From contig CANRAT010000003.1 in NCBI GenBank assembly GCA_947628685.1, forward strand, positions 1 to 36,348: a stretch of 36,348 bases of DNA, in the 5' to 3' direction. The translations under genes and the position numbers were made by a program. This DNA comes from an uncultured Bacilli bacterium (lineage in GTDB: Bacteria; Bacillota_I; Bacilli_A; RF39; UBA660). How positions within the stretch are numbered: position 1 is the first letter of the stretch; every line of letters begins with the position of its first letter. Positions 15,301-32,900 of the stretch are shown here, one piece after another. Under the pieces are notes generated by a model, which did no database searches, was not told the origin of the DNA, and was given only the letters and a program-made list of their open reading frames with translations.

Positions 15301-15988
15301 ATTTGAAGGACCAGACCTTTCTTTAGAAAGTATTAATGCCTTAGAAATAGCAAGACAAAATTTAAGAAATAATGATTTGACTGTAAAAAAGCTTCTAGAT
15401 GATTCTTTGCAAATAGATAAACAAAACTTTAAAAAGACAGTTGATTGGTATGAGGGATTAAGGGAAAATGAAACTGCAAAAATGTCTAGCATTGTAGATT
15501 CTTTGTATTCAAGTGATTCAATTGAAAATTTAAAAGAACTTGCTGAGTCTGCAAGTAAAATGAATGCAGTAAAAGAAATACTAAGCGAAGCTGGAATGTC
15601 TGATATTTCTATAGAAGATTTAATTTCAAACAAAGAACTTGTAAAACAAATTGCAATTTCACAGAATAATATTAATAACCAATTAGCTCATTACAATAAA
15701 TTAAATTCAGATTATGATTTAGAGGGGGATTGGAGAAAATTATCTTCAATGATTGATAGTATTTCTCTATCTGAGTATCGAGGTTCATTTGGTCATAGTA
15801 AAGAATATTGGACTATGCGTTCTGATAGCAATAAACTTTCATATGATGAATTATTAGCCGATTATATATCAGTATCAGCTAACGGTAGAACAGACTTACT
15901 CGATAAATTACAAAGCCTTTGTGGTAATGAAATCTTTGATGATTTAAAAAAGAAGGTAAAAGAAATGGCAGACAAAATGGGAGGTTAA
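12356..15988 (+). CDS. T7SS polymorphic toxin: helical N-terminus, Gly-rich hydrophobic region, ART-like domain and C-terminal HExxH metallopeptidase
   Basis: 1210 aa in T7SS context; GLYHFS..DDIIDSGYVRSS near 14360; HELGH at 15251-15265; FGHSKEYW and DELLAD near the C-terminus; followed at 2 bp by a small gene. Confidence 0.7.
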   Translation: MAELVLNVSKVNSYVIPNIRKIEELMQEAYSTSNTLKSALPSTFNYRSNVSDIVSEIYDIKKEVSKVNTLINEKITQAERIENTGDNKISGITSLIHELNAESYVKNNKSFENRLNSRTTFNMMEDKIPIYKSTVTINQTKASEQIQTDSENVIEQKENSVEVSEVEEQSTLDWVGEKIDGAIDFAGEILEATGSFICDLGSTIWDGVTSVFDWVTDGDNWKELLESLGASIANAVISFSKGVVDLVEAIGDTCVIIGTGVATVGTALYDVGYGIATGDWDFNATKGLWEGAKTVVSYDWSNKIYDSLYDTKAGKWLDEHAYAPFKSDGIACQVIEGVGYVAGVVTLSVVTFGAAGVTFGATSTVGGLSVNAGAVGVTAFATGLSKHTSEEWNKNSISLNYGGQDIEIPIDYEKYLEIENLKENETTTVTQQYQADDGSVQEIMFTITSKGNKEYDIIDNIGNVASLNSLNESSTTKGLLKGVGGGIADGFKYYTAISTLGNFQSLAGMIKHLGSGNYGKGVVSLFKNFGFKQAFKPLVKNAAKATFKDIGFYIDSGTFISGEIKSGIQTGEWNLKNIGAGIFSAYTNNFLGNLGGEYFGSGLGSAMNNIEKSRVELDTSPYSFNENDLNYKHSNVVKAASNRVESNINRYRYTDTNLVDGLNDSIKENGLYHFSSNVDDIIDSGYVRSSGYFSSYGERKSFFFNGVPEVGAYASNLDGIPLKTEAVKIFPSDDIINSSKLKVRNYDDFAVTYSGDLRFDSNNAAKQYFVLRKVDDKLVYANVNKAFYDNYQNTAEGLAVAEFISKKKNVDLIKQDYYYNLSMKSTNAQITYSKVKNSIIESDKGSIDIPSSINHTINLNDIKDYKKFSDSTELIKKKLCSVYELDYDSNVADRMMVNGIMEIIDDNKFTDENVKYIFEHLDKLKEHNKYLSFATYDGTSRYFGGVDQLQMGLSDLDSSCRMVLSHELGHTSYQCVLPGKTKFEGPDLSLESINALEIARQNLRNNDLTVKKLLDDSLQIDKQNFKKTVDWYEGLRENETAKMSSIVDSLYSSDSIENLKELAESASKMNAVKEILSEAGMSDISIEDLISNKELVKQIAISQNNINNQLAHYNKLNSDYDLEGDWRKLSSMIDSISLSEYRGSFGHSKEYWTMRSDSNKLSYDELLADYISVSANGRTDLLDKLQSLCGNEIFDDLKKKVKEMADKMGG

Positions 15989-15990
15989 AG

Positions 15991-16209
15991 ATGAATGAAA
16001 ATCAAAAATATATTGCTTATTGTTTATTACAAAATGAATATTTAAAAAGACAAGGTATATTACAAAATGAAAGTTTAGAGAATATAACACATTTTTTCCC
16101 AGAAGATTGGTTTTTATATAAATTGGATGCAAGGATTAATTTTATTAAAAAAGCATTGAAAGAAAACAAAAAATTGGAAGATATCTTAATTGGAGCTAAA
16201 CATTATTAA
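15991..16209 (+). CDS. Candidate immunity protein
   Basis: 72 aa, 2 bp after the toxin stop, with its GGAGG RBS inside the toxin end. Function inferred from position only. Confidence 0.55.
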   Translation: MNENQKYIAYCLLQNEYLKRQGILQNESLENITHFFPEDWFLYKLDARINFIKKALKENKKLEDILIGAKHY

Positions 16210-16242
16210 ATTTTGAATAACACTAGAAGGAGGAAAGAAAAA

Positions 16243-16563
16243 ATGAATAATGCGCATGAAAAATATTTACCAATAGGAACAGTTGTAATGTTAAAGGGTG
16301 GAAGCAAAAGATTAATGATAACAGGCTTTTGCTCTATGCCAACTGATGATAAAAATAAAATGTTTGATTATTCGGGATGTATGTATCCTGAGGGTGTACT
16401 ATCTAGCGATCAAACAGCATTATTTAACCATGATCAAATAGATAAAATCTATTATATGGGATATGTTGATGATGAAGAGAAAAAATTTAAGTCAACATTA
16501 AATGCATTAATAAGTCAAATGAATAAAAAAACTTCTAATTCACAAGACAGTAACGAAAATTAA
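16243..16563 (+). CDS. DUF4176 family T7SS-associated protein
   Basis: YLPIGTVVMLKGG.KRLMITG...DYSGC.YPEG...LFNH.QI..I...GY.DDEE; AGGAGG RBS. Confidence 0.92.
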   Translation: MNNAHEKYLPIGTVVMLKGGSKRLMITGFCSMPTDDKNKMFDYSGCMYPEGVLSSDQTALFNHDQIDKIYYMGYVDDEEKKFKSTLNALISQMNKKTSNSQDSNEN

Positions 16564-16586: not shown

Positions 16587-16808
16587 AATTTTGCTTCTTT
16601 TATAAGTTATTTTCTTTTCATTAGTAAGCCCTAATATATAATCAACACTTGTATCATAAAATATTGCAAGTTTAATAAGTATGTTTGTTGGGATATCATT
16701 TGTTTCAGTTTCATATTTAGAATAACCTGTTTGAGACATATTAAGCTCATTTGCTATATCTTTTTGTAATAAATCATTATCCTCTCTTAAATCTCTTAGT
16801 CTATTCAT
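16572..16808 (-). CDS. XRE-family HTH transcriptional regulator
   Basis: MNRLRDLREDNDLLQKDIA..L.MSQTGYSKYE...DIP...LIKLA.FY..SVDYILGLT; GGTGAG RBS on the minus strand. Confidence 0.93.
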   Translation of the reverse strand: MNRLRDLREDNDLLQKDIANELNMSQTGYSKYETETNDIPTNILIKLAIFYDTSVDYILGLTNEKKITYKRSKIKRDN

Positions 16809-16837
16809 CTAACTCACCAATGCTATCTTACTAAAAA

Positions 16838-16876
16838 ATATTCCAATTTAGACTATTATAATCTAAATTGGAATAT
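16838..16876. promoter_or_regulatory. Perfect 15-bp inverted repeat upstream of xre (operator or hairpin)
   Basis: ATATTCCAATTTAGA-ctattataa-TCTAAATTGGAATAT. Confidence 0.65.
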
Positions 16877-16985
16877 ATATGTCCTTTTGCAGCACATTTT
16901 TTCTGAAATTTAAAAAATTTAAAAATTTTTATTGACATAAGTATAAATGCTTGCTGTTATATATATGTTTATTTGAGGTGGTACT

Positions 16986-17150
16986 ATGGATATAGATGAA
17001 ATGCTAAAAAAGAATTGGTAATGGATTCATATACTAAAGACAAAAAATTATTTTAGAAATGTTTATTTAAGTGATGTAAGTAAATCTGGAAAATATCTTT
17101 CTTTTTCCAAATCTTTTGTTCAATCTGAAAGAAGTCATGAATACTGCAGT
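16986..17150 (+). pseudogene. Frameshifted 5' fragment of the SWIM-SNF2 helicase gene
   Basis: Clearly homologous to 29983-~30149 and preceded by the same promoter/RBS region. A 1-nt loss in an A-run gives TAA at 17019-17021; the fragment ends at the fusion to the ffh copy. Confidence 0.92.
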
Positions 17151-17151
17151 C

Positions 17152-17444
17152 TAAAAAAATTGGGACCACTAGAGAGTTTAATTAAAATGATACCAGGTGT
17201 ACCAAAAGAGTTAAAGAGTGTTAAAATAGACTCTAAAGATATGGCACATATAGAGGCTATAATTCTTTCAATGACACCATATGAAAGAAGACATCCAGAA
17301 ATTTTAAAAGCATCTAGAAAAATTAGAATTGCTAAAGGTTCAGCAAGAAGCGTAGAAGAAGTAAATAGATTGCTTAATCAATTCGAACAAATGAAAAAAA
17401 TGATGAAAATGATGAAAAACGGAAATATGAAAATGCCATTTTAG
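17152..17444 (+). pseudogene. ffh: Duplicated 3' end of ffh (M-domain fragment); 292-bp direct repeat, copy 2
   Basis: Identical to 5947-6238; only the last stop-codon base differs (TAG versus TAA). No RBS before the TTG at 17160. Confidence 0.95.
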
Positions 17445-17550: not shown

Positions 17551-17805
17551 ATGAAAGAAAATAAAATAAATGTAGAATTAATAGTTCCATGCATAGGCCA
17601 AAAGTATAATTTGTTTATACCTGTAAATAAAACTGTAGGAGAAATAATAAAAATTCTAAATAATATTATAAATGATATGACCGGTTGTTTTCCTTCAAAT
17701 AATAAACTATGTATAATGAATGTTTTTGAAAATGTGATATATGATAGTAAAACTGAAATATTAAATTCTGGTATTAAGAATGGCTCTGTTTTAGCTTTAA
17801 TATAG
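17551..17805 (+). CDS. esaB: EsaB/YukD-like ubiquitin-fold T7SS protein, paralog 2
   Basis: 84 aa; NKINVELIVP..GQKYNLFIPVNK...SGIKNGSVLALI aligns by eye with 10941-11192. Confidence 0.75.
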   Translation: MKENKINVELIVPCIGQKYNLFIPVNKTVGEIIKILNNIINDMTGCFPSNNKLCIMNVFENVIYDSKTEILNSGIKNGSVLALI

Positions 17806-17817
17806 TTGGTGATAAAA

Positions 17818-20800
17818 ATGAAAGTTATTGTAGAAAGTGAAAAAAATTTAAATATAACATCTTTGCCAGAAAGTGTTACAGGAAATTACTGGATATTAGA
17901 TAATAATTCTAAAAATTTATTAAATGTAATAGGCGAAAATGGCAAATGGGTATTAAAAAGTAATGCTGATATAAAAATAAGCGCTAATATATTAAAAGAT
18001 GATTTGGATAATATAAATTTTATAGATTCAGCTGTATTAGATGTTAATAGAATTTATTATGCAGCTAATTCAGTAACTAAGGAAAAATATATATTATATA
18101 CATTACCTAGTTATGAAAATTTTGAAAATTTACTTATAGATTATACTAAGACGAATAATATTGTAATTGGAATAGATAGCAGTTGTGATATAACGGTTAA
18201 AAATATATTATTTGAATCAAAACAATTAAGTTTCGAATATGTAAACCAAAATGGTGGAGTTTTAGTAAAAAATTTATCTAATAGAGTCAAACTATTTATT
18301 AATAATAAATTTTGTAATCAGTCATATTTAAATAGAGGTGATATTCTATTTGTTGGAGGTTTATTTATATATTTTTTTGGCACTTTAATACTTGTCAGTA
18401 ATAATAAAAATGATTTAGTTTTTAATTCTTCTAAATTAACTAAAAGAATGATGTATGAAAACCCTGATATAGATTATTCTAGTTTAATAGATAGGGAAGT
18501 ATCTTTCTTTGATAAAAGTAAATATTTTCAAAGACCACCTAGATTTAAAAGACAAATAGAAAAGAAAATATTTAACATAGATGCTCCAACGCAAAAAGAA
18601 AAACAAGATGATATGCCATTGATTTTTACTGTCGCTCCTATGCTTACTATGGGTATGATGAGTATGGTATCAGGGGCAACTGCACTCCAAAAAGTTTTGA
18701 GTGGAGAAAGTACAATAAAAGAGCAATTTCCATCCTTACTTATGTGTGGGTGCATGCTCGTTTCAATGATTTTATTCCCTTTATTTCAAAAATTTTATAC
18801 TAAACGTAAAAAAATTCAAAAAGAAAAACAAAGAAGAAAAAAGTATAAAAATTATATTGATGAAAAACGTGAAGAAATAAAAAAAGAAATAAATTATCAG
18901 AAATCAGTATTAGTTGAAAATAATTTGCCTATTGAAAATGTTAGAGATGTTATTTTAAATAAATCAAGGACACTGTGGGAAAGAAAAATAGAACACAATG
19001 ATTTTTTGGAATTAAGACTAGGCATAGGGACTAGAAAGCCTGATATAGAAATTAAATATCCGGAGGAACACTTTACACTAGATGAAGATGATTTAAAAGA
19101 TTTAATAGCAGATTTAATTAAAGAAAATAATGATTTAAAGGATGTCCCTATTACATTAAATTTTAAAGATCATAACAAAGTGGGACTTATAGTAGAAAAA
19201 AATATAACAAGAAGTTTTCTTGATAATTTAATGCTACAAATTATGGCTTTTCATGGGTATGACATGTTAAGATTAGTTATTTTAACTAATGGAGAAAATA
19301 AATCTTATTGGGAAAAATATAAAAGTATTCCTTTTTTATGGAATAATGATAAAAGTGTAAGATATTATGCATCAAATAAGGATGATGTTAACAAAATAAC
19401 TAGCATATTAATGGAAGAATATAACTATAGAAAAGAAACAAATAGTGAAAATAAAGAAATATCAAAATTTATTCCATATTATTTAGTTGTAACTGATGAT
19501 ATAGTATCTGTAAAAAATAATGTTTTTATTAGTGAAATCTTAAAAAGTGAAATTAACTTGGGATATAGTATAATTATGGTAGATAATAAATTAAACAATA
19601 TTCCTAATGAATGTAGCATGTTTATCAATGTTGCTCAAAATTCTAGTGCGATATTTACAAATGAAATGACTGAAGGTAATCAAATAATTTTTAGACCAGA
19701 TTTTGTAAACTTTTCACTAAGAAACTGTATTATTAATATAAGCAATATTCCTATGGATATAAATGGCGGTAAATTTGTATTACCTAAAAAATATGGATTT
19801 TTAGAGATGTTTGATGTTGGTAATGTCAATCAGTTAAATATTATTAATAGATGGAAAAATAATGATATAACTAATTCTTTGGAAGCACCAGTTGGAATAG
19901 ATGAGCAAGGAGAATTATTTAAATTGGATTTACACGAAAAAACTCATGGCCCACACGGACTTGTTGCAGGTATGACTGGTAGCGGTAAATCTGAATGGAT
20001 AATTACATATATTCTTTCTATGGCAATAAATTATAGTCCTGAAGAAGTGCAATTTGTTTTAATTGATTACAAAGGTGGAGGACTTGCTTTAACATTCGAT
20101 AATAGAGAAACTGGAGTTAAACTTCCACATGTTGTAGGTACTCTCACTAATTTAGATATAGTTGAGATGAATAGAAGTCTAGCAAGTATAAATAGCGAAC
20201 TTAAAAGAAGACAAAATATGTTTAAAGAGGCTCGTGAAAAATTAAATGAAAGTAGTATGGATATATATAAATATCAATCATTATATAGAGCAGGAAAGTT
20301 AGAAGAGCCTATGAGTCATTTATTTATAATAAGTGATGAGTTTGCTGAGTTAAAAAGTCAGCAGCCAGAGTTTATGGATGAACTTATTTCAGCTGCTCGT
20401 ATAGGACGTTCACTTGGAGTACATTTAATTCTTGCAACACAAAAACCTAGTGGAGTAGTTGATGATCAAATATGGTCTAACTCTAAATTTAGAGTTTGCT
20501 TAAAAGTTCAAGATAAAAGTGATTCAAACGATATGTTAAAGCGCCCTGAAGCAGCAATGCTTAAAGAAACAGGTAGATTTTATTTACAAGTAGGTTATAA
20601 TGAATTTTTCGCACTAGGACAATCGGCTTATGCAGGAATGCCGTATTATGAAAGTGATAAAAAAATTACAGTAGTTGATTCAACAGTAGATTTTATAGAT
20701 GAAATTGGTAGAGTTATTAAAAAGGGTGATTTAGAGAAAAATAATACACAGTTTGTTCATAAAGGCGAAGAACTTCCAAATATTTTAAATTATATAATTG

Positions 20801-22425
20801 ATGCAGCTAAAACTCAGAATTTAAAAATCAAACCACTTTGGCTTAGTAGTATTCCAGGAACGATATATGTTGATAAATTAAAAGAAAAATATAATTATCA
20901 AAAAGAAGATTATGTTTTAAATCCTATTGTTGGTGAATACGATGACCCACATAAACAGCAACAAAATTTATTAACAGTACCACTTAGTAAAGATGGCAAC
21001 TTCTTATTATATGGGGCAAGTGGTAGTGGAAAAGAGTTATTCTTGACAACTTTATTATATTCACTAATAACTACTTATACTCCAGATGAGGTCGGAATAT
21101 ATATATTAGATTTTGGAACAGAGGTATTAAATAATTTTACTGAAAGTTCACATGTAGGGGATGTAGTACATTCTGGTGAAGATGAAAAAATAGATAATTT
21201 GTTTAAGTATATAAAAACTGAAATAGATTTAAGAAGAAAGAAATTTTTACAATATAATGGTAGTTATGAAGATTTTATTGCAAATTCAGATAAAAAAATA
21301 CCAAATATAGTTGTAGCTATTAACTCATTTGATGTCTTTGAAGAATTATATAACAACCAAGCAGAAAAATTATACGAATTAACAAGAGAGTGTAATAAAT
21401 TTGGAATATATTTTGTACTTACTGTAAGTTCTATTAATGGAGTAAAAAGCAAATTATTGCAAACATTTAAAACAATATATTCTTTGCAACTTAACAATGA
21501 ATTTGATTATAGAAGCATTTTTGGAAATACTAACGGTGTTACTCCTTCAAAACTATATGGTAGAGGATTATTTAAGAAAGATAGGGTATTAGAATTTCAA
21601 ACTGCATTTGCTTTTGAAAGAGATGAACTTTATAAAAAAATACTTGAAATGTCAATTAAATCATTTATGAAATATAAGACAAAAATGAAACAAATACCTG
21701 TATTACCTAAAGAGGTTGAGTTTGGACATATTAACAAAGGAGAACTTGGATTTAATTTTATACCTGTTGGTCTAGTAAAGAAAGATTTAGGAATTGCTAG
21801 TATAAAACTAAAAGATGAACTTAGTTATTTAATAAGTTTTAGAGATTTTGATGAAAATGTTACATTTATCGATAAATTCTTACGTATATTAGATAGCGGT
21901 AATATGGATACAATAGTTTTTGATGCTAAATATATTTATGAAACAAACGATTTTAAAAAGATAAGATATTTAAATACAGGATATACAGGTATGTTAGAGA
22001 CATTGAATAAGTTTGTTAATGAAGTAGATGATGTTTTAAAAAATAATAAAAACAATATGAGGGCAATCAAGAATATTGGTGAAGTATTATGTGTCGTTAT
22101 AGGATTTGATAAATTTATAAGTTCATTATCTAAAGAAGATAAAGATATATTTATTAATATATTAACAAAAGCAAAAGATAATTTAAAAATTCATTTTATA
22201 TTTATAGATATTCCAGCAGGATTTAAACCTTATGAATTCGAATCTTGGTATAAATCAACGATAGATGTATCTACTGGGCTTTATATAGGTGATGGATTTG
22301 CGGAACAATATTTAATTAAACCTACAAAAGTTCTTCAAGACTATTATGCAGTTATAGGAAATAACTTTGGATATATAGTTGAAAAAGGACAAGTTAAGTT
22401 TATTAAGATAATTGAAAAAATGTAA
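17818..22425 (+). CDS. essC: Type VII secretion ATPase EssC, paralog 2
   Basis: Same architecture as paralog 1: FHA-like N-terminus, 2 TM helices, HGPHGLVAGMTGSGKSE, DEFAELK, RSLGVHLILATQKP, second ATPase GASGSGKE, degenerate third domain. Start set at ATG 17818 after GGTGA. Confidence 0.95.
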   Translation: MKVIVESEKNLNITSLPESVTGNYWILDNNSKNLLNVIGENGKWVLKSNADIKISANILKDDLDNINFIDSAVLDVNRIYYAANSVTKEKYILYTLPSYENFENLLIDYTKTNNIVIGIDSSCDITVKNILFESKQLSFEYVNQNGGVLVKNLSNRVKLFINNKFCNQSYLNRGDILFVGGLFIYFFGTLILVSNNKNDLVFNSSKLTKRMMYENPDIDYSSLIDREVSFFDKSKYFQRPPRFKRQIEKKIFNIDAPTQKEKQDDMPLIFTVAPMLTMGMMSMVSGATALQKVLSGESTIKEQFPSLLMCGCMLVSMILFPLFQKFYTKRKKIQKEKQRRKKYKNYIDEKREEIKKEINYQKSVLVENNLPIENVRDVILNKSRTLWERKIEHNDFLELRLGIGTRKPDIEIKYPEEHFTLDEDDLKDLIADLIKENNDLKDVPITLNFKDHNKVGLIVEKNITRSFLDNLMLQIMAFHGYDMLRLVILTNGENKSYWEKYKSIPFLWNNDKSVRYYASNKDDVNKITSILMEEYNYRKETNSENKEISKFIPYYLVVTDDIVSVKNNVFISEILKSEINLGYSIIMVDNKLNNIPNECSMFINVAQNSSAIFTNEMTEGNQIIFRPDFVNFSLRNCIINISNIPMDINGGKFVLPKKYGFLEMFDVGNVNQLNIINRWKNNDITNSLEAPVGIDEQGELFKLDLHEKTHGPHGLVAGMTGSGKSEWIITYILSMAINYSPEEVQFVLIDYKGGGLALTFDNRETGVKLPHVVGTLTNLDIVEMNRSLASINSELKRRQNMFKEAREKLNESSMDIYKYQSLYRAGKLEEPMSHLFIISDEFAELKSQQPEFMDELISAARIGRSLGVHLILATQKPSGVVDDQIWSNSKFRVCLKVQDKSDSNDMLKRPEAAMLKETGRFYLQVGYNEFFALGQSAYAGMPYYESDKKITVVDSTVDFIDEIGRVIKKGDLEKNNTQFVHKGEELPNILNYIIDAAKTQNLKIKPLWLSSIPGTIYVDKLKEKYNYQKEDYVLNPIVGEYDDPHKQQQNLLTVPLSKDGNFLLYGASGSGKELFLTTLLYSLITTYTPDEVGIYILDFGTEVLNNFTESSHVGDVVHSGEDEKIDNLFKYIKTEIDLRRKKFLQYNGSYEDFIANSDKKIPNIVVAINSFDVFEELYNNQAEKLYELTRECNKFGIYFVLTVSSINGVKSKLLQTFKTIYSLQLNNEFDYRSIFGNTNGVTPSKLYGRGLFKKDRVLEFQTAFAFERDELYKKILEMSIKSFMKYKTKMKQIPVLPKEVEFGHINKGELGFNFIPVGLVKKDLGIASIKLKDELSYLISFRDFDENVTFIDKFLRILDSGNMDTIVFDAKYIYETNDFKKIRYLNTGYTGMLETLNKFVNEVDDVLKNNKNNMRAIKNIGEVLCVVIGFDKFISSLSKEDKDIFINILTKAKDNLKIHFIFIDIPAGFKPYEFESWYKSTIDVSTGLYIGDGFAEQYLIKPTKVLQDYYAVIGNNFGYIVEKGQVKFIKIIEKM

Positions 22426-22502: not shown

Positions 22503-23255
22503 ATGATAGAGTTAATAAGTAATAAAATAGTATTGGATGGCAATTATGAAATTAGAGAATATTATACAGATAATGGGATTGTAAGAACATTTTGCTCTGA
22601 TGGACAGATTCAGTCAGCAGAATATATTGATAAAGAAAAAAGAGATTTTTTAGTATTAAATTATCTTACTTTTTTTAATATACCATTTGACTTAAACCCT
22701 AACGGAAAAGATTGTTTAATGTTAGGTGGAGGAACATTAACATATCCAAGTTATTTTTTAAGAAATTTTTTTGATAAAAAAATAGATGTTGTTGAAATAG
22801 ATAAATATTGTATAGATATTGCACAAAAATACTTTTTTATTGCTGAAACTTTAAAAAAATATGATTTAAATAGAGAAAGGATTAATATAATTATTGAAGA
22901 TGCGGTTAATTATGTTGAAATTTGTAATAAAAAATATGATTACATTTTAATAGATTTATTTAAAGGTAAAAATCCACTAAAAGGTATATACAAAAAAGAT
23001 AGTTTACTTAACATAAAAAATTTGTTAAATAAAGGAGGAATCATAGTAGCAAATTACATAATGTTTAAAGAGAATAGTTATAAAGAAGATATAGAAAATT
23101 TAATTAATTTATCTAAATATTACAAAATAATTACCGATAAAGAAAATTATGATTTTCAAAATAAATTTGGGAATGTGTTTGTAATATTATCTGATAATGA
23201 AATAGTAATTCAAAATAAATATAATTATATTGAATTAGATAAGGATGTGATTTAA
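22503..23255 (+). CDS. Spermidine-synthase-like class I SAM-binding protein
   Basis: CLMLGGG (motif I), IDVVEID, IIIEDA..YV, KYDYILIDLF, LNKGGIIVAN. Confidence 0.8.
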   Translation: MIELISNKIVLDGNYEIREYYTDNGIVRTFCSDGQIQSAEYIDKEKRDFLVLNYLTFFNIPFDLNPNGKDCLMLGGGTLTYPSYFLRNFFDKKIDVVEIDKYCIDIAQKYFFIAETLKKYDLNRERINIIIEDAVNYVEICNKKYDYILIDLFKGKNPLKGIYKKDSLLNIKNLLNKGGIIVANYIMFKENSYKEDIENLINLSKYYKIITDKENYDFQNKFGNVFVILSDNEIVIQNKYNYIELDKDVI

Positions 23256-23301: not shown

Positions 23302-23331
23302 TTGACAATTAAATGATTTATATGTTATTAT
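23302..23331 (+). promoter_or_regulatory. Sigma-A promoter of the cassette 2 substrate operon
   Basis: TTGACA-18 bp-TATTAT with TGn; preceded by a 10-bp inverted repeat at 23274-23297. Confidence 0.55.
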
Positions 23332-23393
23332 TGAGTAGGATACGATAATAAGTATCTATAATGGATGTCATATTGTAAGGGAAGGTGGTTTTT

Positions 23394-24011
23394 GTGGCAA
23401 TACATTGTGTAAATCCAAATACAGTTGGAACTCAAGCAGAAGAAATGTTTAATATAACAAATACAACTGGTAGAGATTTAATTAATAGTTTTAGCACAAC
23501 TATAGAAAATTTAAAAAGTCATTGGAAAGGTTCAGATGCAGTGGCAAATTTAACAGATTTATCTAAAGTTTATACTGCAGTAACAGATTTAGTAAAAAAT
23601 CTACAAAATATTATTGTTAGTGTTAATAATAATGAAGTAGTTCCAATGCAAAAACATATTGTAGCTAGTGGAGGATCTTGTACAATAGGAAACGAACTTG
23701 CTGTAACTTTAAATGGAGTTGAATCAGTTATATCTGTACCAACGGAGGCAGTAGAGAGTTGGACTGATCCAGCAATTATTGCTGATGCACAGACATTTAC
23801 TAATTTTCCAACAACATTTGAAAATTTTGTAAATGCATTGAATGAAGCGAAAAATAATTTATTGAATAATTGGTTAGATGGAGCAAACAGGGCAGATGTA
23901 GTAACAACATTTGAAAATTTCAATAACAATGTTCCAGATTATAAAAGTCAAATAACAAAAGTTAGAGATAATTTAAATATAGTTGCTGAAAATAAAAAAC
24001 AATTATTATAG
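23394..24011 (+). CDS. Tandem (double) WXG100-like protein
   Basis: About 205 aa, two roughly 95-aa helical hairpins with SHWKG and NWLDG turns. GTG 23394 is the likely start after GAAGGTGG. Confidence 0.7.
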   Translation: MAIHCVNPNTVGTQAEEMFNITNTTGRDLINSFSTTIENLKSHWKGSDAVANLTDLSKVYTAVTDLVKNLQNIIVSVNNNEVVPMQKHIVASGGSCTIGNELAVTLNGVESVISVPTEAVESWTDPAIIADAQTFTNFPTTFENFVNALNEAKNNLLNNWLDGANRADVVTTFENFNNNVPDYKSQITKVRDNLNIVAENKKQLL

Positions 24012-24078: not shown

Positions 24079-24477
24079 ATGTCATTAATTGTAGCAACTT
24101 TAGTTGTTGGTGGAGCTTTAACCGCTATTGGAATAGGAGGAGGCATTTGGTACGCCAGTACGGAAGATGATAGAGCAAGAGAACGAATTAAGCAATTAGA
24201 AGCTGAAAATGAATCGCTTAATTTTGCAGTAGATTATGTAAGTAACATAAATAACAAACTTAATAGTGCAAAAGATTATTTAAATCAAGCAAAAAAAGAT
24301 TTTCAAAACGGTGGTCATGTTTTAGATGGAGTTCCTTTAGCGGATACGGAATTTACATCTTGTATTAATAAAATAAATGGAGCAATAACGAATGCTACAA
24401 ATCTTATAAATGATTTTAACGCTACGATTGATCAGAATAAAAAAGAAATAAGTAAGGAACAAGAAAAGTTAAAATAA
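24079..24477 (+). CDS. Small helical T7SS effector helper with an N-terminal Gly-rich hydrophobic segment
   Basis: AGGAGG RBS; LIVATLVVGGALTAIGIGGGIW, then coiled coil-turn (GGHVLDG)-coiled coil, similar to 11976-12344. Confidence 0.55.
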   Translation: MSLIVATLVVGGALTAIGIGGGIWYASTEDDRARERIKQLEAENESLNFAVDYVSNINNKLNSAKDYLNQAKKDFQNGGHVLDGVPLADTEFTSCINKINGAITNATNLINDFNATIDQNKKEISKEQEKLK

Positions 24478-24507
24478 TTAAAGTTTTAGCAAAAAGGAGT
24501 GAATTGT

Positions 24508-27420
24508 ATGTTTAAAAGTGAAGCAAAATTATTTTTAAGTGCAAATAACAATGTTAATTCTGCTAAAACTTTAATAAATGAATGTAAAAGATTAATTGTT
24601 GATTTTGATTTGACTGGAGATTCAAATAGTAATGATTTAAAAAATAATATTAATAACTGCAATATAGATTCTCTAGTAGATAAAATTGAAGAAACAAAAG
24701 AAAGTTTAATGAAATTAGACCAAACTTTTGCAAGTGAATATATGACTTTATTGCAAGAATATCTTCAATCACAAACAATAGATACATCAAGCATGACAGA
24801 AGAAGAACAAATGAAATATAGTATACAAATGAATGCTTATGCCAGGGATTATAATCAAAATCTTTTATATATGTTAGAAAGATATGAAGAATCAGGAATG
24901 TTAACGGATGAGATGAAACAGCAACTAGAATATCAAAGAGAACTAGTTGCTCAATACGATATAAAAGATAAAATGGCTGTTTTAGATTCTACAAGTGAGG
25001 AATATATTGATTTATTTAAAAAGAATGCAGAAAGTGATAGAAAATTAATTAATTTAGATCCGAGTTTAACTGAAGAGCAAAAAGTATCGTATTTAAATGC
25101 ATACGAGACGAATTATAATCAGCAATTACAAGCTTTACAAGAAGCAATAGATTATAAATTAAAAAATGATAAATTAGAGAAAGAATTACAGGATTTATAT
25201 AAAGCAAAAGAAGATAATAATGGATTTTTTCACCCATTTGTTGAGAGTGAAATAGAAGAAGCTATTTTAGATAAGAAAATAGAGATAGGTAAGTTTAATC
25301 CAAAGAGTCCATATGCAGCAACAGAGGATGATATAGATTATAAAAATATGAATGGATGGGATAGATTTTGGACAAATACAGGGACATTTTTAACATCAAC
25401 ATTTACAGGCTTATACGACATATCAGAAGGAATTGAAGACGGATTTATTACTTTAGGTAGTGCAGTAGGCATAGTAGATAAAGATTGGGCTACGGAATTT
25501 GTAAGTAAAGATTTATCAGGGGAATTATATCAAGGAATAGTTCTTAATAAAGGAATGAATACAACTTCTGCTTATGGAACTTGGCACGAAGTAGGCGAAG
25601 TATTTGGTGGTTTTGTAGGTAAAGTAGGTATGTCCTTTGCGTGTCCTTGGGTAAATACAGTTATGAGTGGATTAAGCGCAACGGGGCATCAAGCAGAGAT
25701 ATCGTTTAATAATGGTGATGATTATTGGATGGCAGTAGGTAAAAGTTTTATTTCTGGAATTGGAGGAGCAGCAGAAGGATTTGCATACAGTAAGATGAAA
25801 ATGGCATTTCGAGAAATGCGTGGCAAGGGAACTATTAAACAGTTATGGAAACAAGTAATTACAAATGGTGAAACTTTGTCTAAAGAAGGATTAAAACAAG
25901 TAGGTAAAACATTTGGACATTCTTTAATTTCAGCAGCTATAGATCCAGATAGTTTAATTGAATCTGGATGCGTGGTAGCAAATGATTTTATGAATTTTTT
26001 AGCAACTGAAGAATTTAATTTAGAAGAAACTTTGAAAAAAGTAGGCAAAGCATATTTGTATAATTTAGGCATAAAATTTGCAAGTGATTTAGCATTTGGT
26101 TATGAGCCGTTTGGTAAAAAAGTAGATGAACTTGTCAATTCTAATGTAGCAGAACAACATTTTAAAAATAAAAATGCTGACATTTTGTTACAAAATAGCA
26201 ATTTATCAAATATAGATTATGTGGTCGAAATAACAAGCAAAATGGATGAATATAATCAACTATTAGACAATGCATCAGATGATGTAAAATATGCTTTAGA
26301 AGAAGCAAAAAGTGGCCATGCTATTGGTTTTAGTAGTCAGGCAGATGTTGATGTTTATACTAAACTTTCTAAATTACAAAAGGAAATTGGAGATTTACAG
26401 AAACATATTAATTTAAATATAAATACTAATGTTGGTAAGATCGATTCAGCACAACGAGCAAAAATAAAGGGAACTAATATAGATGTTGTATATGCCTATG
26501 ATGAATGTTTAAAACCATATGAAGGTAGAATCTATGAAACATATGGAATGACAAATTTACCAAAAGAGCAAGTCATAGATAACTTGGAAACAATAAAAAA
26601 ATATGACGGTCGTACTATTGGTGATAAACTTGATACTATAAGGAAAAATGAAGGACAATATTCTATTAAATCAGTTACTGCTGAATCAACTGCAATGCAA
26701 ACAATTATTGAAATAAGGCAAAGTTCTGTTCAATCTAAAGTTAGTAAAAGTCATAATAAAATTAGTGTGGTTCAAAAACAAGTGGATGACATGCTTGAAT
26801 TGACAAATTCATCACAATATAAACAATTTAAAACTCCAAAAGAAGCTAGAAAATATTTTAAAAGTGATCTAGAATATTGGGATTCTGCTCAAAAAAGTAT
26901 ATCACTGGATGATCCTAAACATCTTGGCTATGAAGGGATGCGCAAGTATACTGATTCAAAATATATATATATGAATCCATATATGCGAAATATAGGCCCA
27001 CTAAATTCAAAATCTGAAGCATTAATAGGTAATTTAGCAAATACATTAGATGAATTTAAGCTACAAGATGATATAGTTTTTTATAGAGGCGTTGACGAAT
27101 TAAATTGGTTACTTAAAGAAAATAATTTACCTATTGGTTCGGAAAATTTAAAATTATTATCTGGTGGAACTGTTATTGTAAGTGATAATGCATTTATGAG
27201 TGTCACTCCAGTAATGGGCGAAGGATTTACATACAAGAAAATTGTTGAAGTTATAAAAGCGCCAGCTGGAACAAAAGGTTTATTTGTCGATACATTTTCA
27301 TCATGTCCAGATGAGGTTGAATTTCTTATTCAAGCAGGTGAAGGTAATAGAAAAGTTTTGCAGGCAGTTGAAGAAATTGGCGATCAAATATTTGTTTACA
27401 GTGTGATTGTACCTAAATAG
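24508..27420 (+). CDS. T7SS polymorphic toxin with a C-terminal VIP2/C2-like ADP-ribosyltransferase
   Basis: LTG turn near the N-terminus, Gly-rich middle, and C-terminal YT...Y..MN..MR, VFYRG (catalytic R at 27085), AFMSVT, APAGTKGLFV, DEVEFLI (ExE at 27313-27321). Confidence 0.88.
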   Translation: MFKSEAKLFLSANNNVNSAKTLINECKRLIVDFDLTGDSNSNDLKNNINNCNIDSLVDKIEETKESLMKLDQTFASEYMTLLQEYLQSQTIDTSSMTEEEQMKYSIQMNAYARDYNQNLLYMLERYEESGMLTDEMKQQLEYQRELVAQYDIKDKMAVLDSTSEEYIDLFKKNAESDRKLINLDPSLTEEQKVSYLNAYETNYNQQLQALQEAIDYKLKNDKLEKELQDLYKAKEDNNGFFHPFVESEIEEAILDKKIEIGKFNPKSPYAATEDDIDYKNMNGWDRFWTNTGTFLTSTFTGLYDISEGIEDGFITLGSAVGIVDKDWATEFVSKDLSGELYQGIVLNKGMNTTSAYGTWHEVGEVFGGFVGKVGMSFACPWVNTVMSGLSATGHQAEISFNNGDDYWMAVGKSFISGIGGAAEGFAYSKMKMAFREMRGKGTIKQLWKQVITNGETLSKEGLKQVGKTFGHSLISAAIDPDSLIESGCVVANDFMNFLATEEFNLEETLKKVGKAYLYNLGIKFASDLAFGYEPFGKKVDELVNSNVAEQHFKNKNADILLQNSNLSNIDYVVEITSKMDEYNQLLDNASDDVKYALEEAKSGHAIGFSSQADVDVYTKLSKLQKEIGDLQKHINLNINTNVGKIDSAQRAKIKGTNIDVVYAYDECLKPYEGRIYETYGMTNLPKEQVIDNLETIKKYDGRTIGDKLDTIRKNEGQYSIKSVTAESTAMQTIIEIRQSSVQSKVSKSHNKISVVQKQVDDMLELTNSSQYKQFKTPKEARKYFKSDLEYWDSAQKSISLDDPKHLGYEGMRKYTDSKYIYMNPYMRNIGPLNSKSEALIGNLANTLDEFKLQDDIVFYRGVDELNWLLKENNLPIGSENLKLLSGGTVIVSDNAFMSVTPVMGEGFTYKKIVEVIKAPAGTKGLFVDTFSSCPDEVEFLIQAGEGNRKVLQAVEEIGDQIFVYSVIVPK

Positions 27421-27631
27421 AAAGGAGATGTTATGTATAGAAAATAGTAACAATAAATATAATACTGATTTTGGCATAACAAAAATTATGGATGCTACTG
27501 GAAAAGTATTAACTAGAGAAGAACTTATAAAATTAATGAAAATGAAAGAAGAAAATCTTAAAAAGCAAAAAGAATATATAAAAAACAATTTTGATGATGA
27601 AATGTTTGAAAATATTCCCAGGCAAAGATAA
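27407..27631 (+). CDS. Small protein after the toxin, candidate immunity (start uncertain)
   Basis: 74-aa frame overlapping the toxin end. The best RBS (AAGGAG) points to an out-of-frame ATG at 27433. Confidence 0.4.
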   Translation: MYLNRKEMLCIENSNNKYNTDFGITKIMDATGKVLTREELIKLMKMKEENLKKQKEYIKNNFDDEMFENIPRQR

Positions 27632-27702
27632 TAATGAGTAATTATGTCAGATGTTTTGGTACTGAATTTATAATTAAATCTTTTATATTTGGAGGATATG
27701 AT

Positions 27703-28830
27703 ATGACAAATAAAAAAATAATATCAAAATATAAGTCAGAAAAAAGCGAAGAAAAAAATTTATCTTTTAAAGATTTAATTTACTGTTTGAAAAATGAAAA
27801 AACTAATTTATTGAATCAATCACAATATAATGGAAATAAAAGTGAAACTAAAGATTTTAATAACATATTAAATTCCATAGTCGGTTTTACAGTGGGAGAT
27901 GCTTTAGGAGTCCCTGTCGAATTTAAATCAAGACAAAAATTAGAAATCAATCCATTGAAGGAAATGATCGGCTATGGTTTTCATAAAGTACCCGAAGGAA
28001 CTTGGAGCGATGATTCATCAATGATGTTAGCTACTATGGATTCAATAATAGAAAAAAAGGATATAGATTACAATGATATTATGAAAAAGTTTTGTGATTG
28101 GTATGCTGATTCAAAATACACTGCAACAGGGATTACTTTTGATATTGGTATTTCAACAAGTAAGGCATTGCAAAAATTTTATAACGGATTATCTGCTCTT
28201 GAATGTGGAGGTAATGGAGAATATGATAATGGTAATGGTTCTTTAATGCGACTTTTACCTATTGTTTTATATTCATTTTATAATAATTTGAATGAAGAAC
28301 AAGAAATAGAGTTAATAAGCAACAGTTCATCATTAACCCACAATCATGAAATAAGTAAATTGGGGTGTAAAATATATACTGATTTTGTAAAATCATTGTT
28401 GAAAGGTCAAACAAAAGCACAGGCTTTTAATGATATACTTAGCAAAGATTATAGTGAACATTATTCTAATGGAAGCATTAATTATTATAAAAGATTACTG
28501 AATATCAAATTTCCAGAATTAAGTAGTAGTGAAATTAATTCTTCTGGATTTATTGTAGATACGTTAGAAGCAAGTATTTGGTGTTTACTTACAACAAGTT
28601 CGTATGAAAATGCGGTTGTTAAAGCGATAAATTTGGGTAATGATACTGACACGATAGGAGCAATAACTGGTTCAATGGCAGGTATTTTATATGGTTATGA
28701 AAGTATTCCCGAAAGATGGATATCAAAATTAAAAAATAAAGAATATTTGTTTAGTTTAATCAACAAATTTGATGAAACTTTAATTAATTTGAAATATAAT
28801 GAAAACAGTGATGCCAAAAAGAACCTATGA
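27703..28830 (+). CDS. ADP-ribosylglycohydrolase (ARH/DraG family) with an N-terminal extension; candidate immunity
   Basis: VGDALGVPVEF, GTWSDDSSM, FDIGIST, NGNGSLMR, LTHNH, GNDTDTIGAITG; GGAGG RBS before ATG 27703. Confidence 0.93.
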   Translation: MTNKKIISKYKSEKSEEKNLSFKDLIYCLKNEKTNLLNQSQYNGNKSETKDFNNILNSIVGFTVGDALGVPVEFKSRQKLEINPLKEMIGYGFHKVPEGTWSDDSSMMLATMDSIIEKKDIDYNDIMKKFCDWYADSKYTATGITFDIGISTSKALQKFYNGLSALECGGNGEYDNGNGSLMRLLPIVLYSFYNNLNEEQEIELISNSSSLTHNHEISKLGCKIYTDFVKSLLKGQTKAQAFNDILSKDYSEHYSNGSINYYKRLLNIKFPELSSSEINSSGFIVDTLEASIWCLLTTSSYENAVVKAINLGNDTDTIGAITGSMAGILYGYESIPERWISKLKNKEYLFSLINKFDETLINLKYNENSDAKKNL

Positions 28831-29009
28831 GTGAATTTAAGATAGTAAAAGAACATAAAAAAATTTTGATATTAAAATAATTTATTTTGAAATAATATTT
28901 GTTAATTATGAAAAATCGTATATTAATAAAATCCTAAATATTAGTTATAAGAGTTCAATTGAATTTAGAAAAGATTTAATTAAAAATTTAAATAAAAAGG
29001 AGAAATTTT

Positions 29010-29372
29010 ATGAATGAAAAATTTAAAAAGTATTTACCATTAGGAAGTGTAGTATTAATGAAGGGTGGTAAAAAAAGGATTATGGTGACAGGGTATGCGG
29101 TTAAAGCACCAGAATCAGGAGATAGACTTTGGGATTATATAGGTTGCTTATGGCCTGAGGGTATGATAACACCTGATAAAAATCTGCTTTTTGACCACAA
29201 GGATATTCAACAAATATTTGCTATTGGATATTCTGATGATGAACAAAAAAGATTTATGAGTGTATTGGATAAAGCTACTCAATTAAGAGAAGATAGATTA
29301 AATCAAAATAATGTAGTTGTTGATAGTACAAATTCAAACAATAATGGTGATGATACAAATTCAAATGGTTAA
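29010..29372 (+). CDS. DUF4176 family T7SS-associated protein, paralog 2
   Basis: YLPLGSVVLMKGGKKRIMVTG...DYIGCLWPEG...LFDHKDI..I...GYSDDEQ; AAGGAG RBS. Confidence 0.92.
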   Translation: MNEKFKKYLPLGSVVLMKGGKKRIMVTGYAVKAPESGDRLWDYIGCLWPEGMITPDKNLLFDHKDIQQIFAIGYSDDEQKRFMSVLDKATQLREDRLNQNNVVVDSTNSNNNGDDTNSNG

Positions 29373-29383
29373 TAATTAAATTT

Positions 29384-29404
29384 AAAGCAATTATTTGCTT
29401 TTTT
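29384..29404 (+). terminator. Intrinsic terminator
   Basis: AAAGCAA-TTAT-TTGCTTT followed by a T run. Confidence 0.6.
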
Positions 29405-29700: not shown

Positions 29701-29728
29701 TAATAACTTTTATTTTATAATTAATAGC

Positions 29729-29870
29729 TTTTCGTTAGAAAAATCTAATATATAATCAACACTTGTATTATAGAATATTGCAAGTTTATTAAAAATATTT
29801 GCTGGTATATCATTTGTTTTAGTTTCATATTTTGAATAAACTGTTTGAGACATATTAAGCTCATTTGCTA
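29729..29870 (-). pseudogene. XRE regulator remnant
   Basis: Homologous to 16615-16756; the equivalent of 16757-16870 (first codons, RBS and most of the palindrome) is deleted. Confidence 0.88.
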
Positions 29871-29928
29871 GAATATACGTGTTTTGTTACATTCGATTTA
29901 TAAAATTTAAAGAATTTTAAATTTCTTA

Positions 29929-29957
29929 TTGACATAAGTACAAATGTTTGCTATTAT
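29929..29957 (+). promoter_or_regulatory. Sigma-A promoter of the SNF2 gene
   Basis: TTGACA-17 bp-TATTAT with TGn; GAGGTGG RBS downstream. Confidence 0.7.
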
Positions 29958-29982
29958 ATATATGTTTATTTGAGGTGGTTTT

Positions 29983-32900
29983 ATGGATATAGATGAAATG
30001 TTAAAAAAAGAATTAGGAATGGATTCATATACTAAAGGTAAAAATTATTCTAGAAATGTTTATTTAAGTGATGTAAGTAAATCTGGAAAATATCTTTCTT
30101 TTTTCAAATTTTTTGTTCAATCTGAAAGAAACCATGAATACTATACAGTAAATATATTTTTAAATAATGGCGAAATTTTTAGGTATCACTGCACTTGTGA
30201 ACAATTTAATGCATATGATACTTGTAAACATGTTGCAGCATGCTTTATAAAATATAAAAGAGATATATTCCCTAAACCATTAGATGAGTATGATATTTCT
30301 AAAAATATATTAGATTATTTTAGTAAAGATAAGTCTACTAATAATATAAAAGAAAAACTTAATTTAGATGTTGAACTAGATTTTACTCATGGTAAAATAA
30401 TGGCGTATATTTCGATAGGATTAAATAAGACATATGTAATAAAAAGTGAAAGTAAACTTGCTTCATTCCTAAACGCATATAAAAAAGAACAATATAGATT
30501 TGGGGCTAATTTCTTGTATGACCCTAATATACATTACTTATCCATAGAAGATGAAAATATATTAAATTTTTTTACAGGATATGAAAAATCGAATTCTAAT
30601 ATTTATTATTACCACCGTTCTAACAATAATCCATTTGAGTTAAACTTAAGAGAATTTAGAGCTTTCTTAAAATTATTAGATGGTAAAGAATTTAAAATAA
30701 AAGATCATGGAATAATAAAACAAATAAAAGAAGATGTGCCAATAAATTTAAAATTAGATTATAATAATGACCACTATGAACTTTCATTTGATAATGAAAA
30801 TGAGTGCTATGTAATAGATGATGAATATAAATATATTGTTCATAATGAGACTTTTTATATAGTTCCTAAGGATATATCAGAAATTTTAAAATTAAAAAAT
30901 GAATCTAAAGTAGAAAAAATAGTATTTAAAAAAGAAAATACTGAAATGTTTAAAAAGGGTTTATTAAGTAGAATAAAAAATAATTTAAGTATAACTGAAA
31001 ATGTAAAAGATATAATTATTTCTGGTAAACCTACTATATCATATTATTTCGATTTTTCAAAAGATTGCATAACTTGTAAGATTAAATTTGATTATAAAGG
31101 GAATATAATAGATTACTTTGATAAACAAACAAATATTTTAAGAGATGAACAAGCAGAACAAAGTGCTTTGATTGAATTAGTTAATTATAAATTTAAAATA
31201 GGAAGTAATAATATTATTTTGGATAATCTAGAGGATATATGTAACTTTATAGAAAATGGAATACAAGAATTAAATCAAAAATATAGTGTATATACAACGA
31301 AAAAAGTAGATGATATCAAAATAATTAAAAAGAGTAATATAAATTCTAATTTTTCAATTGGTAAAGATGCAATAATGTCTTATAATTTTGACGTAGATAA
31401 TATAGATTTAAATGAACTTGGTAAAGTATTATCTGAGCTAAAACTTAAAAAGAAATATTATAAATTAAAAAATGGAAATATAATTGACTTATATGAAAAT
31501 AAAGAATTAAATGAACTTAATGAAATATTTGACGATTTAGATATAAATAGTAAAAAAATAGAAGAAGGCATTATAGAAATACCTAAATATAGAGCATTTT
31601 ATATAGATAGTTTAAAGAAAAATAAATATAAGTCAATAAATACTGATAATTCATTTAATAAATTTATTAAAAATTTTGAGGAATATAAAAAAGTTAAAAT
31701 AAATTTTGATGAAAAAGACGAAAAGATACTTAGAGATTATCAAAAAGAGGGAGTTAGATGGTTATACACACTTTATAAATGTGATTTAGGTGGAATATTA
31801 GCAGATGAAATGGGTCTAGGTAAAAGTTTACAGACTATATGTTTTATAAAGCAAATTTTAAAAGAGAAAAATGATGCTAAAATAATGATTGTATGTCCAA
31901 CTTCACTGGTATATAACTGGAAAAAGGAGTTTGATAAATTTGCGCCTGAACTAAAATATATAACTGTTGCAGAAAATAAAAAGAAAAGATTAGAAATAAT
32001 AAAAAATATAGATAAATATAACGTATTTATAACATCATATGGTTTAATTAGAAATGATAATGATGAGTATGAAAATGTAAACTTTGAGGTTTGTGTTATA
32101 GATGAAGCGCAAGCGATTAAAAACTATCAGGCAAATATGAGTAAAGAAGTAAAAAAAATTAAGTCTAGAACTAAGATAGCTCTAACTGGAACTCCTTTAG
32201 AAAATTCAGTATTAGAACTATGGAGTATATTTGATTTCATTATGCCTGGTTATTTAAATAATATATCAAAATTTAAAGAAAATTATGGTATTAGTGATAT
32301 TGATTTAAAATCTTTAGAAAGGTTAAAAAAATTAAATTATCAAATAAAACCTTTTATATTAAGAAGAAAGAAAAAGGATGTATCAAAAGAACTTCCAGAT
32401 AAGATAGAAAATAATATATATTTAGAATTACCTGATATTCAAAAGGCTCTTTATTTAAATGTAGTTAAAACAACCAAGGAAGAGATGGATGAATTAATTA
32501 AGACTGAAGGCTGGTCTAAAGCAAGATTTAAAATATTACAGTTACTAACAAAATTAAGACAAATATGTATAGATCCTAGTGTTTTATATGAAGATTATAA
32601 AGGTGAATCAATAAAATTAGAAAAATTACTTGAAATAGTAAAAGATTACATAAAAGAAGGACATAAAATATTAATATTTAGTAGTTTTAAAAGAATATTA
32701 GATAAAGTAAATAAAAAGTTTAATAAGGAAGGAATTAAAAGTTATACCATAAATGGAGATATTGATTCTAAAGATAGAATGAATTTAGTTGAAAGTTTTA
32801 ATACTGATGATACAAATTGTTTTTTAATCACACTGAAAGCTGGAGGTACAGGACTTAATTTAACAAGTGCAGATATAGTAATACATCTAGATATATGGTG

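Follow-up and report, generated by a model that had tools for sequence, protein, structure and literature searches.

A putative type VII-associated ADP-ribosyltransferase toxin with a predicted ADP-ribosylhydrolase immunity protein in an uncultured Bacilli bacterium

An ADP-ribosyltransferase (ART) and an ADP-ribosylhydrolase (ARH) of Listeria monocytogenes have been solved together in PDB entry 8ZA7, released 2025-04-30. Chain B, Lmo0066, is the ART, chain A, Lmo0067, is the ARH, and the title of the entry speaks of an ART-ARH type toxin effector-immunity protein pair. The gene lmo0066 lies in the T7SS (type VII secretion system) region of Listeria (PMC5417603). A literature search found no paper that treats Lmo0066/Lmo0067 as an ART-ARH pair, nor one on a T7SS ART with ARH immunity. 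The two Listeria proteins are the best sequence and fold matches for both partners of a gene pair described here from an uncultured Bacilli bacterium of lineage RF39 (UBA660; assembly GCA_947628685.1). The pair lies on contig CANRAT010000003.1, which is the stretch analysed and is termed the window: 36,348 nucleotides (nt), the entire single contig, AT-rich with ∼26% GC. The genome is 1.29 Mb in size and 92% complete.

A second described pair is Tre1-Tri1 of Serratia proteamaculans, which consists of an R-S-E ART toxin and a DraG-like ARH with an N-terminal extension; Tri1 both occludes the toxin and reverses the modification (PMC8120803, PMC11606950). The window displays the same combination, an R-S-E ART toxin and a DraG-like ARH with an N-terminal extension (compare PDB 6DRE/6DRH). 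It differs in that Tre1-Tri1 is delivered by a type VI secretion system whereas the genes here stand in a T7SS context, and the Tri1 family model leaves the extension of the ARH unmatched. Tre1 is absent from the PDB sequence matches and from the listed Foldseek matches of the ART domain. The ARH of the window also resembles Imm-ARG, for which Zhang et al. (2012, PMC3482391) described a strict association with toxin ARTs of R-S-E type and which they presented as the only enzymatic immunity protein then known: it, too, is a catalytically intact ADP-ribosylglycohydrolase whose gene adjoins that of an R-S-E clade toxin ART, and its predicted action is to undo the modification. The description of Imm-ARG is one of comparative genomics only, and accessory modules or extensions go unmentioned in the passage that deals with it.

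The PF03496 toxins C3, VIP2, Certhrax and Plx2A have the same fold and catalytic motif as the ART domain of the window, with 16–22% identity. Unlike the pair here, they are secreted toxins whose targets are proteins of eukaryotes, and they come without an ARH partner. The DraT-DraG system shares the ARH fold and metal site. It is regulatory, involves no secretion and uses an ART of another family, and the ARH of the window scores 151 with TIGR02662 against a cut-off of 337.

The pair in the window is a divergent further example of the class known from Imm-ARG, Tre1-Tri1 and Listeria 8ZA7; it belongs to a known kind, as both partners match 8ZA7 and Imm-ARG was described in 2012. A sequence-only reading of the window had proposed a T7SS arginine-ART toxin with an ARH as enzymatic immunity, and had taken the pair for a Gram-positive counterpart of the Serratia system. 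The functional assignment is supported by homology to the 8ZA7 chains and by the EssC, WXG100 and DUF4176 context. The novelty of a Gram-positive counterpart did not survive, with the Listeria pair solved and Imm-ARG on record since 2012. The most likely explanation, with a probability of about three in four, is that a 970-amino-acid protein with a C3/VIP2-like R-S-ExE ART is a T7-secreted antibacterial toxin that ADP-ribosylates arginine on a cytoplasmic protein of rivals, while the ARH protects the producer. The toxin would leave the cell via the type VII system and its ART domain would modify the arginine in the cytoplasm of rival cells; the ARH would protect its own cell by removing the ADP-ribose, and would probably also bind the toxin domain.

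The toxin domain and the ADP-ribosylhydrolase

The components of the pair, all on the + strand, are the following.

24508..27420, + strand: putative polymorphic toxin of 970 amino acids with a helical N-terminal region, a Gly-rich middle and a C-terminal ART domain; an AGGAG box stands before ATG 24508, and the 970-amino-acid form is on record
26932..27333, + strand: core of the ART domain (PF03496) with R860-S898-E936xE938, from Pfam, alignment, motifs and model
27428..27631, + strand: open reading frame (ORF) of 67 amino acids, candidate third component (74 codons open from 27407), from the open frame and a public record
27703..28830, + strand: ARH of 375 amino acids, predicted immunity protein (PF03747, E 5e-73)
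27703..27864, + strand: N-terminal extension of the ARH, ∼54 amino acids, lineage-specific, absent from most homologues
27874..28716, + strand: catalytic domain of the ARH (Pfam match) with metal-site motifs GDALGVPVEF, WSDD, FDIG and DTDT

The C-terminal 246 amino acids of the large protein (nt 26680–27417) match the Pfam family PF03496, ADPrib_exo_Tox, with an E-value of 7.3e-14 and 52 bits against a cut-off of 23.4, over nt 26932–27333. When the full-length translation of 973 amino acids (24499–27420) was scanned whole, no Pfam family was found at E up to 0.01. The missed PF03496 match shows that long low-complexity toxins should be scanned piecewise. The ART motifs are YMRN at 825, FYRG at 858 (R860, nt 27085–27087), FMSVT at 896 (S898, nt 27199–27201) and EVEF at 936 (E936/E938, nt 27313–27321). 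They follow the catalytic order R860, S898-V-T900, E936-V-E938 and align with YRG, MSTT and EAE of Lmo0066. In an alignment of 23 sequences the R of FYRG is invariant, and the S and both E residues are at least 90% conserved. Between Lmo0066 and the ART here the sequence match has an E-value of 2.7e-13 at ∼26% identity, with the same R-S-ExE motif.

The AlphaFold model of the domain has a pLDDT (predicted local distance difference test) of 91.9. In a fold search with Foldseek the top match is 8za7_B (E 2.6e-15), followed by Plx2A, C3, Certhrax, VIP2, CDTa and iota Ia; TM scores are 0.70–0.77 against 8za7_B, Plx2A, C3bot and VIP2. The subfamily is rare: a set of 1.84 billion representatives yields 197 clusters at E up to 0.001. 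An arginine acceptor is suggested by the ExE motif together with the Arg-type eraser partner.

The ARH lies on the same strand directly downstream of the toxin ART, across a gap of 282 nt that contains no terminator-like site, which bears out the earlier description of an R-S-ExE ART followed by an ARH within about 280 bp. The ARH matches PF03747 with 246.7 bits against a cut-off of 26.2, and the Pfam domain begins at residue 58 of 375. In the numbering of the 375-amino-acid form, WSDDSS occupies residues 101–106 and DTDT residues 314–317, both invariant in 18 aligned homologues. The metal-site residues E73, D103/D104, D147 and D314-T-D316-T317 are all in place and do not vary in the alignment. 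The intact SDD and DTD motifs read earlier from the letters alone were thus confirmed, as were the roughly 50 extra N-terminal residues, which number ∼54.

The start at ATG 27703 is preceded by a GGAGG box (27691–27695) 7 nt upstream. Public collections record the ARH with 375 amino acids, and one strain variant is recorded with 398 amino acids from the equivalent of the in-frame ATG 27634. The core is modelled at pLDDT >90. Among PDB sequences the ARH matches 8za7_A (E 3.4e-79, 40% identity), then Tri1 (6dre_A, E 1.3e-41), then DraG; the Foldseek ranking is 8za7_A, then 6drh/6dre, then DraG. The Listeria chain has no long N-terminal extension, and its consecutive gene numbers suggest, from the names alone, that no gene lies between toxin and ARH, whereas the 67-amino-acid ORF lies between them here. 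Domains, catalytic motifs, gene order and T7SS neighbours are seen directly in the window; a toxin-immunity relation is suggested by homology with the co-crystallized Listeria pair of 8ZA7 and with Tre1-Tri1.

The ARH family is large, and 7981 of 8000 scored candidates have E-values up to 1e-10. Several variants of domain composition were seen in it. Seven close homologues (P0021, P0023, P0027, P0064, P0089, P0108 and P0109) carry an N-terminal RelA/SpoT-like domain of the HD hydrolase type, with PF13328 precomputed for five of the seven, and at one locus (L014:1483-3246) a single protein contains two tandem ARH domains. ARHs fused to other domains could represent composite 'poly-immunity' enzymes. 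In two genomes of the same bacterial family, the ARHs at L015:398-1588 (− strand) and L017:1207-2442 share a fourth type of N-terminal extension (BLASTP E 1e-10). Each follows a large protein whose C-terminus has only a weak, below-cut-off match to DUF3626, an arrangement that may represent another toxin family paired with an eraser.

Secretion genes, distribution and rival explanations

The toxin-ARH pair is located in the second of two + strand secretion cassettes, and EssC, WXG100 and DUF4176 genes, assigned by Pfam and NCBIfam, flank it. The other genes of this cassette are given below.

17551–17805, + strand: YukD-like ORF, a weak match, in cassette 2
17806..22425, + strand: EssC ATPase of cassette 2, 1539 amino acids (NCBIfam TIGR03928 T7_EssCb_Firm, 995 bits against a cut-off of 778; Pfam FtsK_SpoIIIE)
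22503–23255, + strand: spermidine-synthase-like methyltransferase (PF01564, E 8.7e-16), between EssC and the WXG100-like gene
23385..24011, + strand: WXG100-like protein of 208 amino acids, likely secretion partner (PF06013 WXG100, E 1.2e-8, 35.5 bits against a cut-off of 27.3)
24079..24477, + strand: protein of 132 amino acids with a hydrophobic segment at the N-terminus and a coiled coil, putative helper without known family; an AGGAGG box stands before ATG 24079
29010..29372, + strand: small DUF4176 protein, predicted toxin chaperone (PF13780, E 9.3e-26)

A promoter-like site with 11 of 12 positions matched is found at 23302–23331, ahead of the WXG100-like gene. The 132-amino-acid protein is weakly similar (BLASTP E 0.001) to a 125-amino-acid ORF that lies upstream of the toxin of the first cassette, here called toxin 1. 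The DUF4176 family comprises T7SSb toxin chaperones, small members of which are encoded downstream of immunity genes (PMC12478183); the DUF4176 gene of the window follows the predicted immunity gene, and the gene order here therefore agrees with that description. Export of the toxin by a T7SS is inferred from the gene neighbourhood.

Three full-length EssC genes are present in the 1.29-Mb genome, all above the TIGR03928 cut-off (6317–10951 and 17806–22425 of the window, and G000:C37:2041-5931). Garrett et al. (2024, PMC11217815) describe T7SS variants with EssC, WXG100 and YukD-like components in which those specific to T7SSb are missing, and three EssC genes without detected EssB or EsaA may point to such a non-b variant of the T7SS.

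To follow the distribution of the pair, 200 further genomes from the same bacterial family were compared. The ART turned up in three of them, and all three also have the ARH. In G057 and G148 the ARH is downstream of the ART on the same contig; in G008 the toxin stands at the end of one contig and the ARH at the start of another. G065, a genome of the same genus, has neither. Between the same genomes the ARH core is 46–54% identical and the ART 28–34%. This better conservation of the ARH fits a generic eraser and a diversifying toxin, and broad immunity by the ARH is plausible.

At E up to 1e-30, 21 of the 200 family genomes contain ARH homologues, against three with the ART. Taken as evidence for orphan ARHs with broad immunity, this surplus was rejected because of the neighbours at the extra loci: among the eight inspected, three ARHs stand beside SIR2, Macro or DUF1810 genes, and two more follow large proteins with the weak, below-cut-off DUF3626 match. 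Among named genomes, an ART of this type is upstream at 4 of 80 ARH loci, and the other 76 have no such ART within 3.5 kb. A search of genome contigs with the single ART domain found no relative.

Several results weigh against a T7-secreted antibacterial toxin with an ARH as its immunity protein. The evidence is computational throughout. Some close ARH homologues in the family stand without this ART, beside the SIR2, Macro or DUF1810 genes, and a metagenome scan with a five-sequence ART alignment gave three distant loci, none of which has an ARH. With regard to secretion, the LXG domain (PF04740) was not detected in toxin residues 1–234 at E up to 10. The N-terminal 234–331 amino acids likewise have no Pfam or NCBIfam match, and neither the PDB nor the Atlas gave a lead. 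The best match to EssB (PF10140) has 18 bits, below the cut-off, and EsaA (TIGR03929) has no match in this genome. The secretion apparatus is thus atypical or incomplete, although the absence of EssB and EsaA is not proven because the genome is 92% complete. With the NCBIfam Tri1 model NF041672 the ARH scores 187.3 bits against an equivalog cut-off of 490, and the match covers residues 32–355 only. Lastly, apart from Lmo0066, the nearest structures of the ART domain are the host-directed toxins C3, VIP2, Certhrax, iota and CDTa.

The last of these points leads to the first of two rival explanations, that the toxin hits cells of the animal gut host in the manner of C3/VIP2-type exoenzymes, with the ARH merely guarding the producer from leaky activity. 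The eukaryote-directed structural neighbours that come after Lmo0066 favour such a role. Yet a dedicated cytoplasmic eraser implies that the target is present in bacteria, and the T7SS cassette, polymorphic C-terminus, chaperone and immunity gene together make up the architecture of an interbacterial toxin, so that a host target is improbable. An endogenous writer and eraser with a regulatory function, comparable to DraT and DraG and not a weapon, would account for the homology between the ARH and DraG. It fits poorly with an ART that ends a 970-amino-acid protein in a secretion cassette and with the patchy occurrence of the pair among relatives, with three of 200 genomes positive and the same-genus genome negative; this explanation is very improbable. 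The antibacterial toxin with an ARH that protects the producer is the reading retained here.

Modules between the toxin and the ADP-ribosylhydrolase core

The gap between toxin and ARH contains a 74-codon open frame (27407–27631); when the gap was shuffled 20,000 times, an open run of at least 70 codons appeared in 0.3% of cases. The frame is therefore unlikely to be open by chance, and the 74-amino-acid ORF of the sequence-only reading is a real open frame whose 67-amino-acid product, from ATG 27428, is on record. The record covers eight contigs, and the 90% cluster of the product has one member. Its ribosome-binding site, with GGAG immediately before the ATG, is a poor one. A mini-ORF of four codons (ATG TAT AGA AAA TAG, 27433–27447), out of frame with the 67-amino-acid ORF, stands at optimal distance from an AAAGGAG box after the toxin stop codon; it may be a device for coupling or re-initiation, or a product of chance. 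No homologue or family was found for the 67-amino-acid ORF in Pfam, in the feature atlas or in a search of 119–2000 residues, and there was no fused relative among 115 candidates.

Some 54–57 residues precede the catalytic domain of the ARH. Of the 120 best ARH homologues, 118 match the motif pattern; in 79 of these 118 the first catalytic motif falls within the first 35 residues. A homologue search found as relatives of the extension only strain variants ∼98% identical. The extension is modelled as low-confidence helices (pLDDT 30–54). In the strain variant, three of nine substitutions fall in the 54-residue extension, a fourth lies three residues further on, and five are in the remaining core, which are small numbers. 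The crystallized Listeria ARH chain aligns from its residue 26 and so lacks a long extension; with this chain co-crystallized, complex formation in the ARH family evidently needs no long arm. In Tri1, residues 27–33 form the helix that enters the active site of Tre1 (PMC11606950).

Eight ART-ARH loci were inspected, and all eight have a module that comes after the toxin stop codon and ahead of the ARH core, either an ORF of at least 63 amino acids or an N-terminal extension of at least 50. The modules are as follows.

Window: ORF of 67/74 amino acids and extension of 54 amino acids
G057: ORF of 66 amino acids (P0272)
G148: ORF of 279 amino acids and a domain of ∼200 amino acids fused to the ARH
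G008: ORF that continues past both contig ends
L020: ORF of 177 amino acids, related to the G008 ORF (E 0.002)
L063: Cys4 ORF of 70 amino acids
L085: Cys4 module of the L063 type, fused to the ARH (BLASTP E 2e-7)
L092: ∼2 kb of ORFs

Two types of module are seen both free and fused. One, termed type A, displays F-x-F-x-DD followed by a K/E-rich helix; it is free as P0272 in G057 and fused to the N-terminus of the ARH in 11 of the 120 best homologues. The other is the Cys4 module, free at L063 and fused at L085. The presence of modules as free proteins in some genomes and as fusions in others argues for a joint function with the ARH, and by analogy with Tri1 the extra modules may supply the half of immunity that consists in binding.

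Homology of the 67/74-amino-acid ORF or the extension of the window to the type A module was considered and rejected: hmmsearch gave E 0.26 at rank 2 of 527 frames, and hhalign gave probabilities of 1% and 0.2%. An all-against-all BLASTP of the modules likewise found nothing for the 67-amino-acid ORF or the extension. The 72-amino-acid ORF after toxin 1 was also compared with the 74-amino-acid ORF, and no similarity was found.

Two explanations of how the toxin would be blocked can be weighed on these data. According to one, immunity has three parts: the 67-amino-acid product, the extension or both would act as a cognate plug that occludes the ART active site stoichiometrically, and the ARH core would provide generic catalytic repair, as in Tri1 but with the plug partly in a separate gene. 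The intervening module at all eight loci, the free and fused states of type A and Cys4, the low chance of the open 67-amino-acid frame and the 72-amino-acid ORF that directly follows toxin 1 in cassette 1 are consistent with it. Against these stand the lack of significant similarity between the ORF and extension of the window and the modules of other loci, the missing homologues and poor ribosome-binding site of the 67-amino-acid ORF, and the Listeria ARH, which co-crystallizes with its toxin and has no long extension; moreover, polymorphic toxin loci commonly hold extra ORFs anyway. A three-part immunity is a tentative explanation, which the present data leave doubtful. The alternative takes the extension as a Tri1-type occluding arm and the 67-amino-acid ORF as irrelevant. 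Tri1 is the second-best solved relative of the ARH and has an extension of similar length (residue 72 of the query aligns with residue 66 of Tri1), and substitutions of the strain variant in and near the extension would suit a specificity element, small as their number is. But the Tri1 family model falls below its cut-off and leaves residues 1–31 uncovered, the extension is modelled with low confidence and has no relatives beyond the strain variants, and neither the closest solved relative nor most homologues have such an arm. An occluding arm of this type appears rather unlikely.

The three-part explanation can be widened, with equal reserve, to Gram-positive ART-ARH pairs in general. A hypervariable cognate plug would bind the toxin and a conserved ARH core would erase the damage generically. 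The plug would be free in the 67-amino-acid ORF, P0272 and the Cys4 ORF of L063, and fused in the 54-amino-acid extension, in type A of the 11 homologues and in L085. Possible roles of the extension and of the 67-amino-acid ORF, like T7SS export, the arginine acceptor and the target, are conjectural.

Tandem cassettes and significance of the pair

Two T7SS cassettes stand in tandem between ffh and a gene for an SNF2 helicase, with duplicated flanks. Each contains genes for EssC, DUF4176 and WXG100-type proteins, together with a large toxin and a small ORF. The final 292 nt of ffh are repeated at 100% identity (5947–6238 and 17152–17443), and a copy of the 5′ region of the SNF2 gene is repeated at 87–90% (16607–17161 and 29721–30158). 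The EssC genes of the two cassettes are only ∼76% identical in DNA. The tandem arrangement looks like a second allelic island inserted via recombination in ffh. A 105-nt contig over 17077–17181 is present in four of four runs of one sample, from which the window may come; the contig passes the junction at 17152 by only 30 letters, one short of the bridging criterion. Runs that hold 26800–29400 are labelled rabbit gut metagenome: four from one sample, possibly the source (X1–X4), with shares of 0.84–0.99, and one from another study (X5), with a share of 0.25.

Toxin 1 of the first cassette (12356–15988, 1210 amino acids) has no recognizable toxin domain in Pfam. It is directly followed by the 72-amino-acid ORF (15991–16209) and then by a DUF4176 gene (16213–16563). 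The two toxins display weak similarity only in the Gly-rich middle region (E 0.016). The PF01564 methyltransferase at 22503–23255 is an unusual passenger for a T7SS cluster.

Enzymatic immunity that repairs damage, beyond blocking the toxin, is to our knowledge rare. Such immunity could protect against non-cognate toxins. The locus adds an ART-ARH example from a gut Firmicute that is uncultured and has a small genome. Of more use as a lead is the module that recurs between toxin and eraser; should it form the binding half of a bifunctional immunity, it would offer a simple system in which cognate protection can be separated from generic protection. If Gram-positive pairs are indeed built of a plug and an eraser, Tri1-like extensions would be one state of a modular design in which the two repeatedly fuse and separate.

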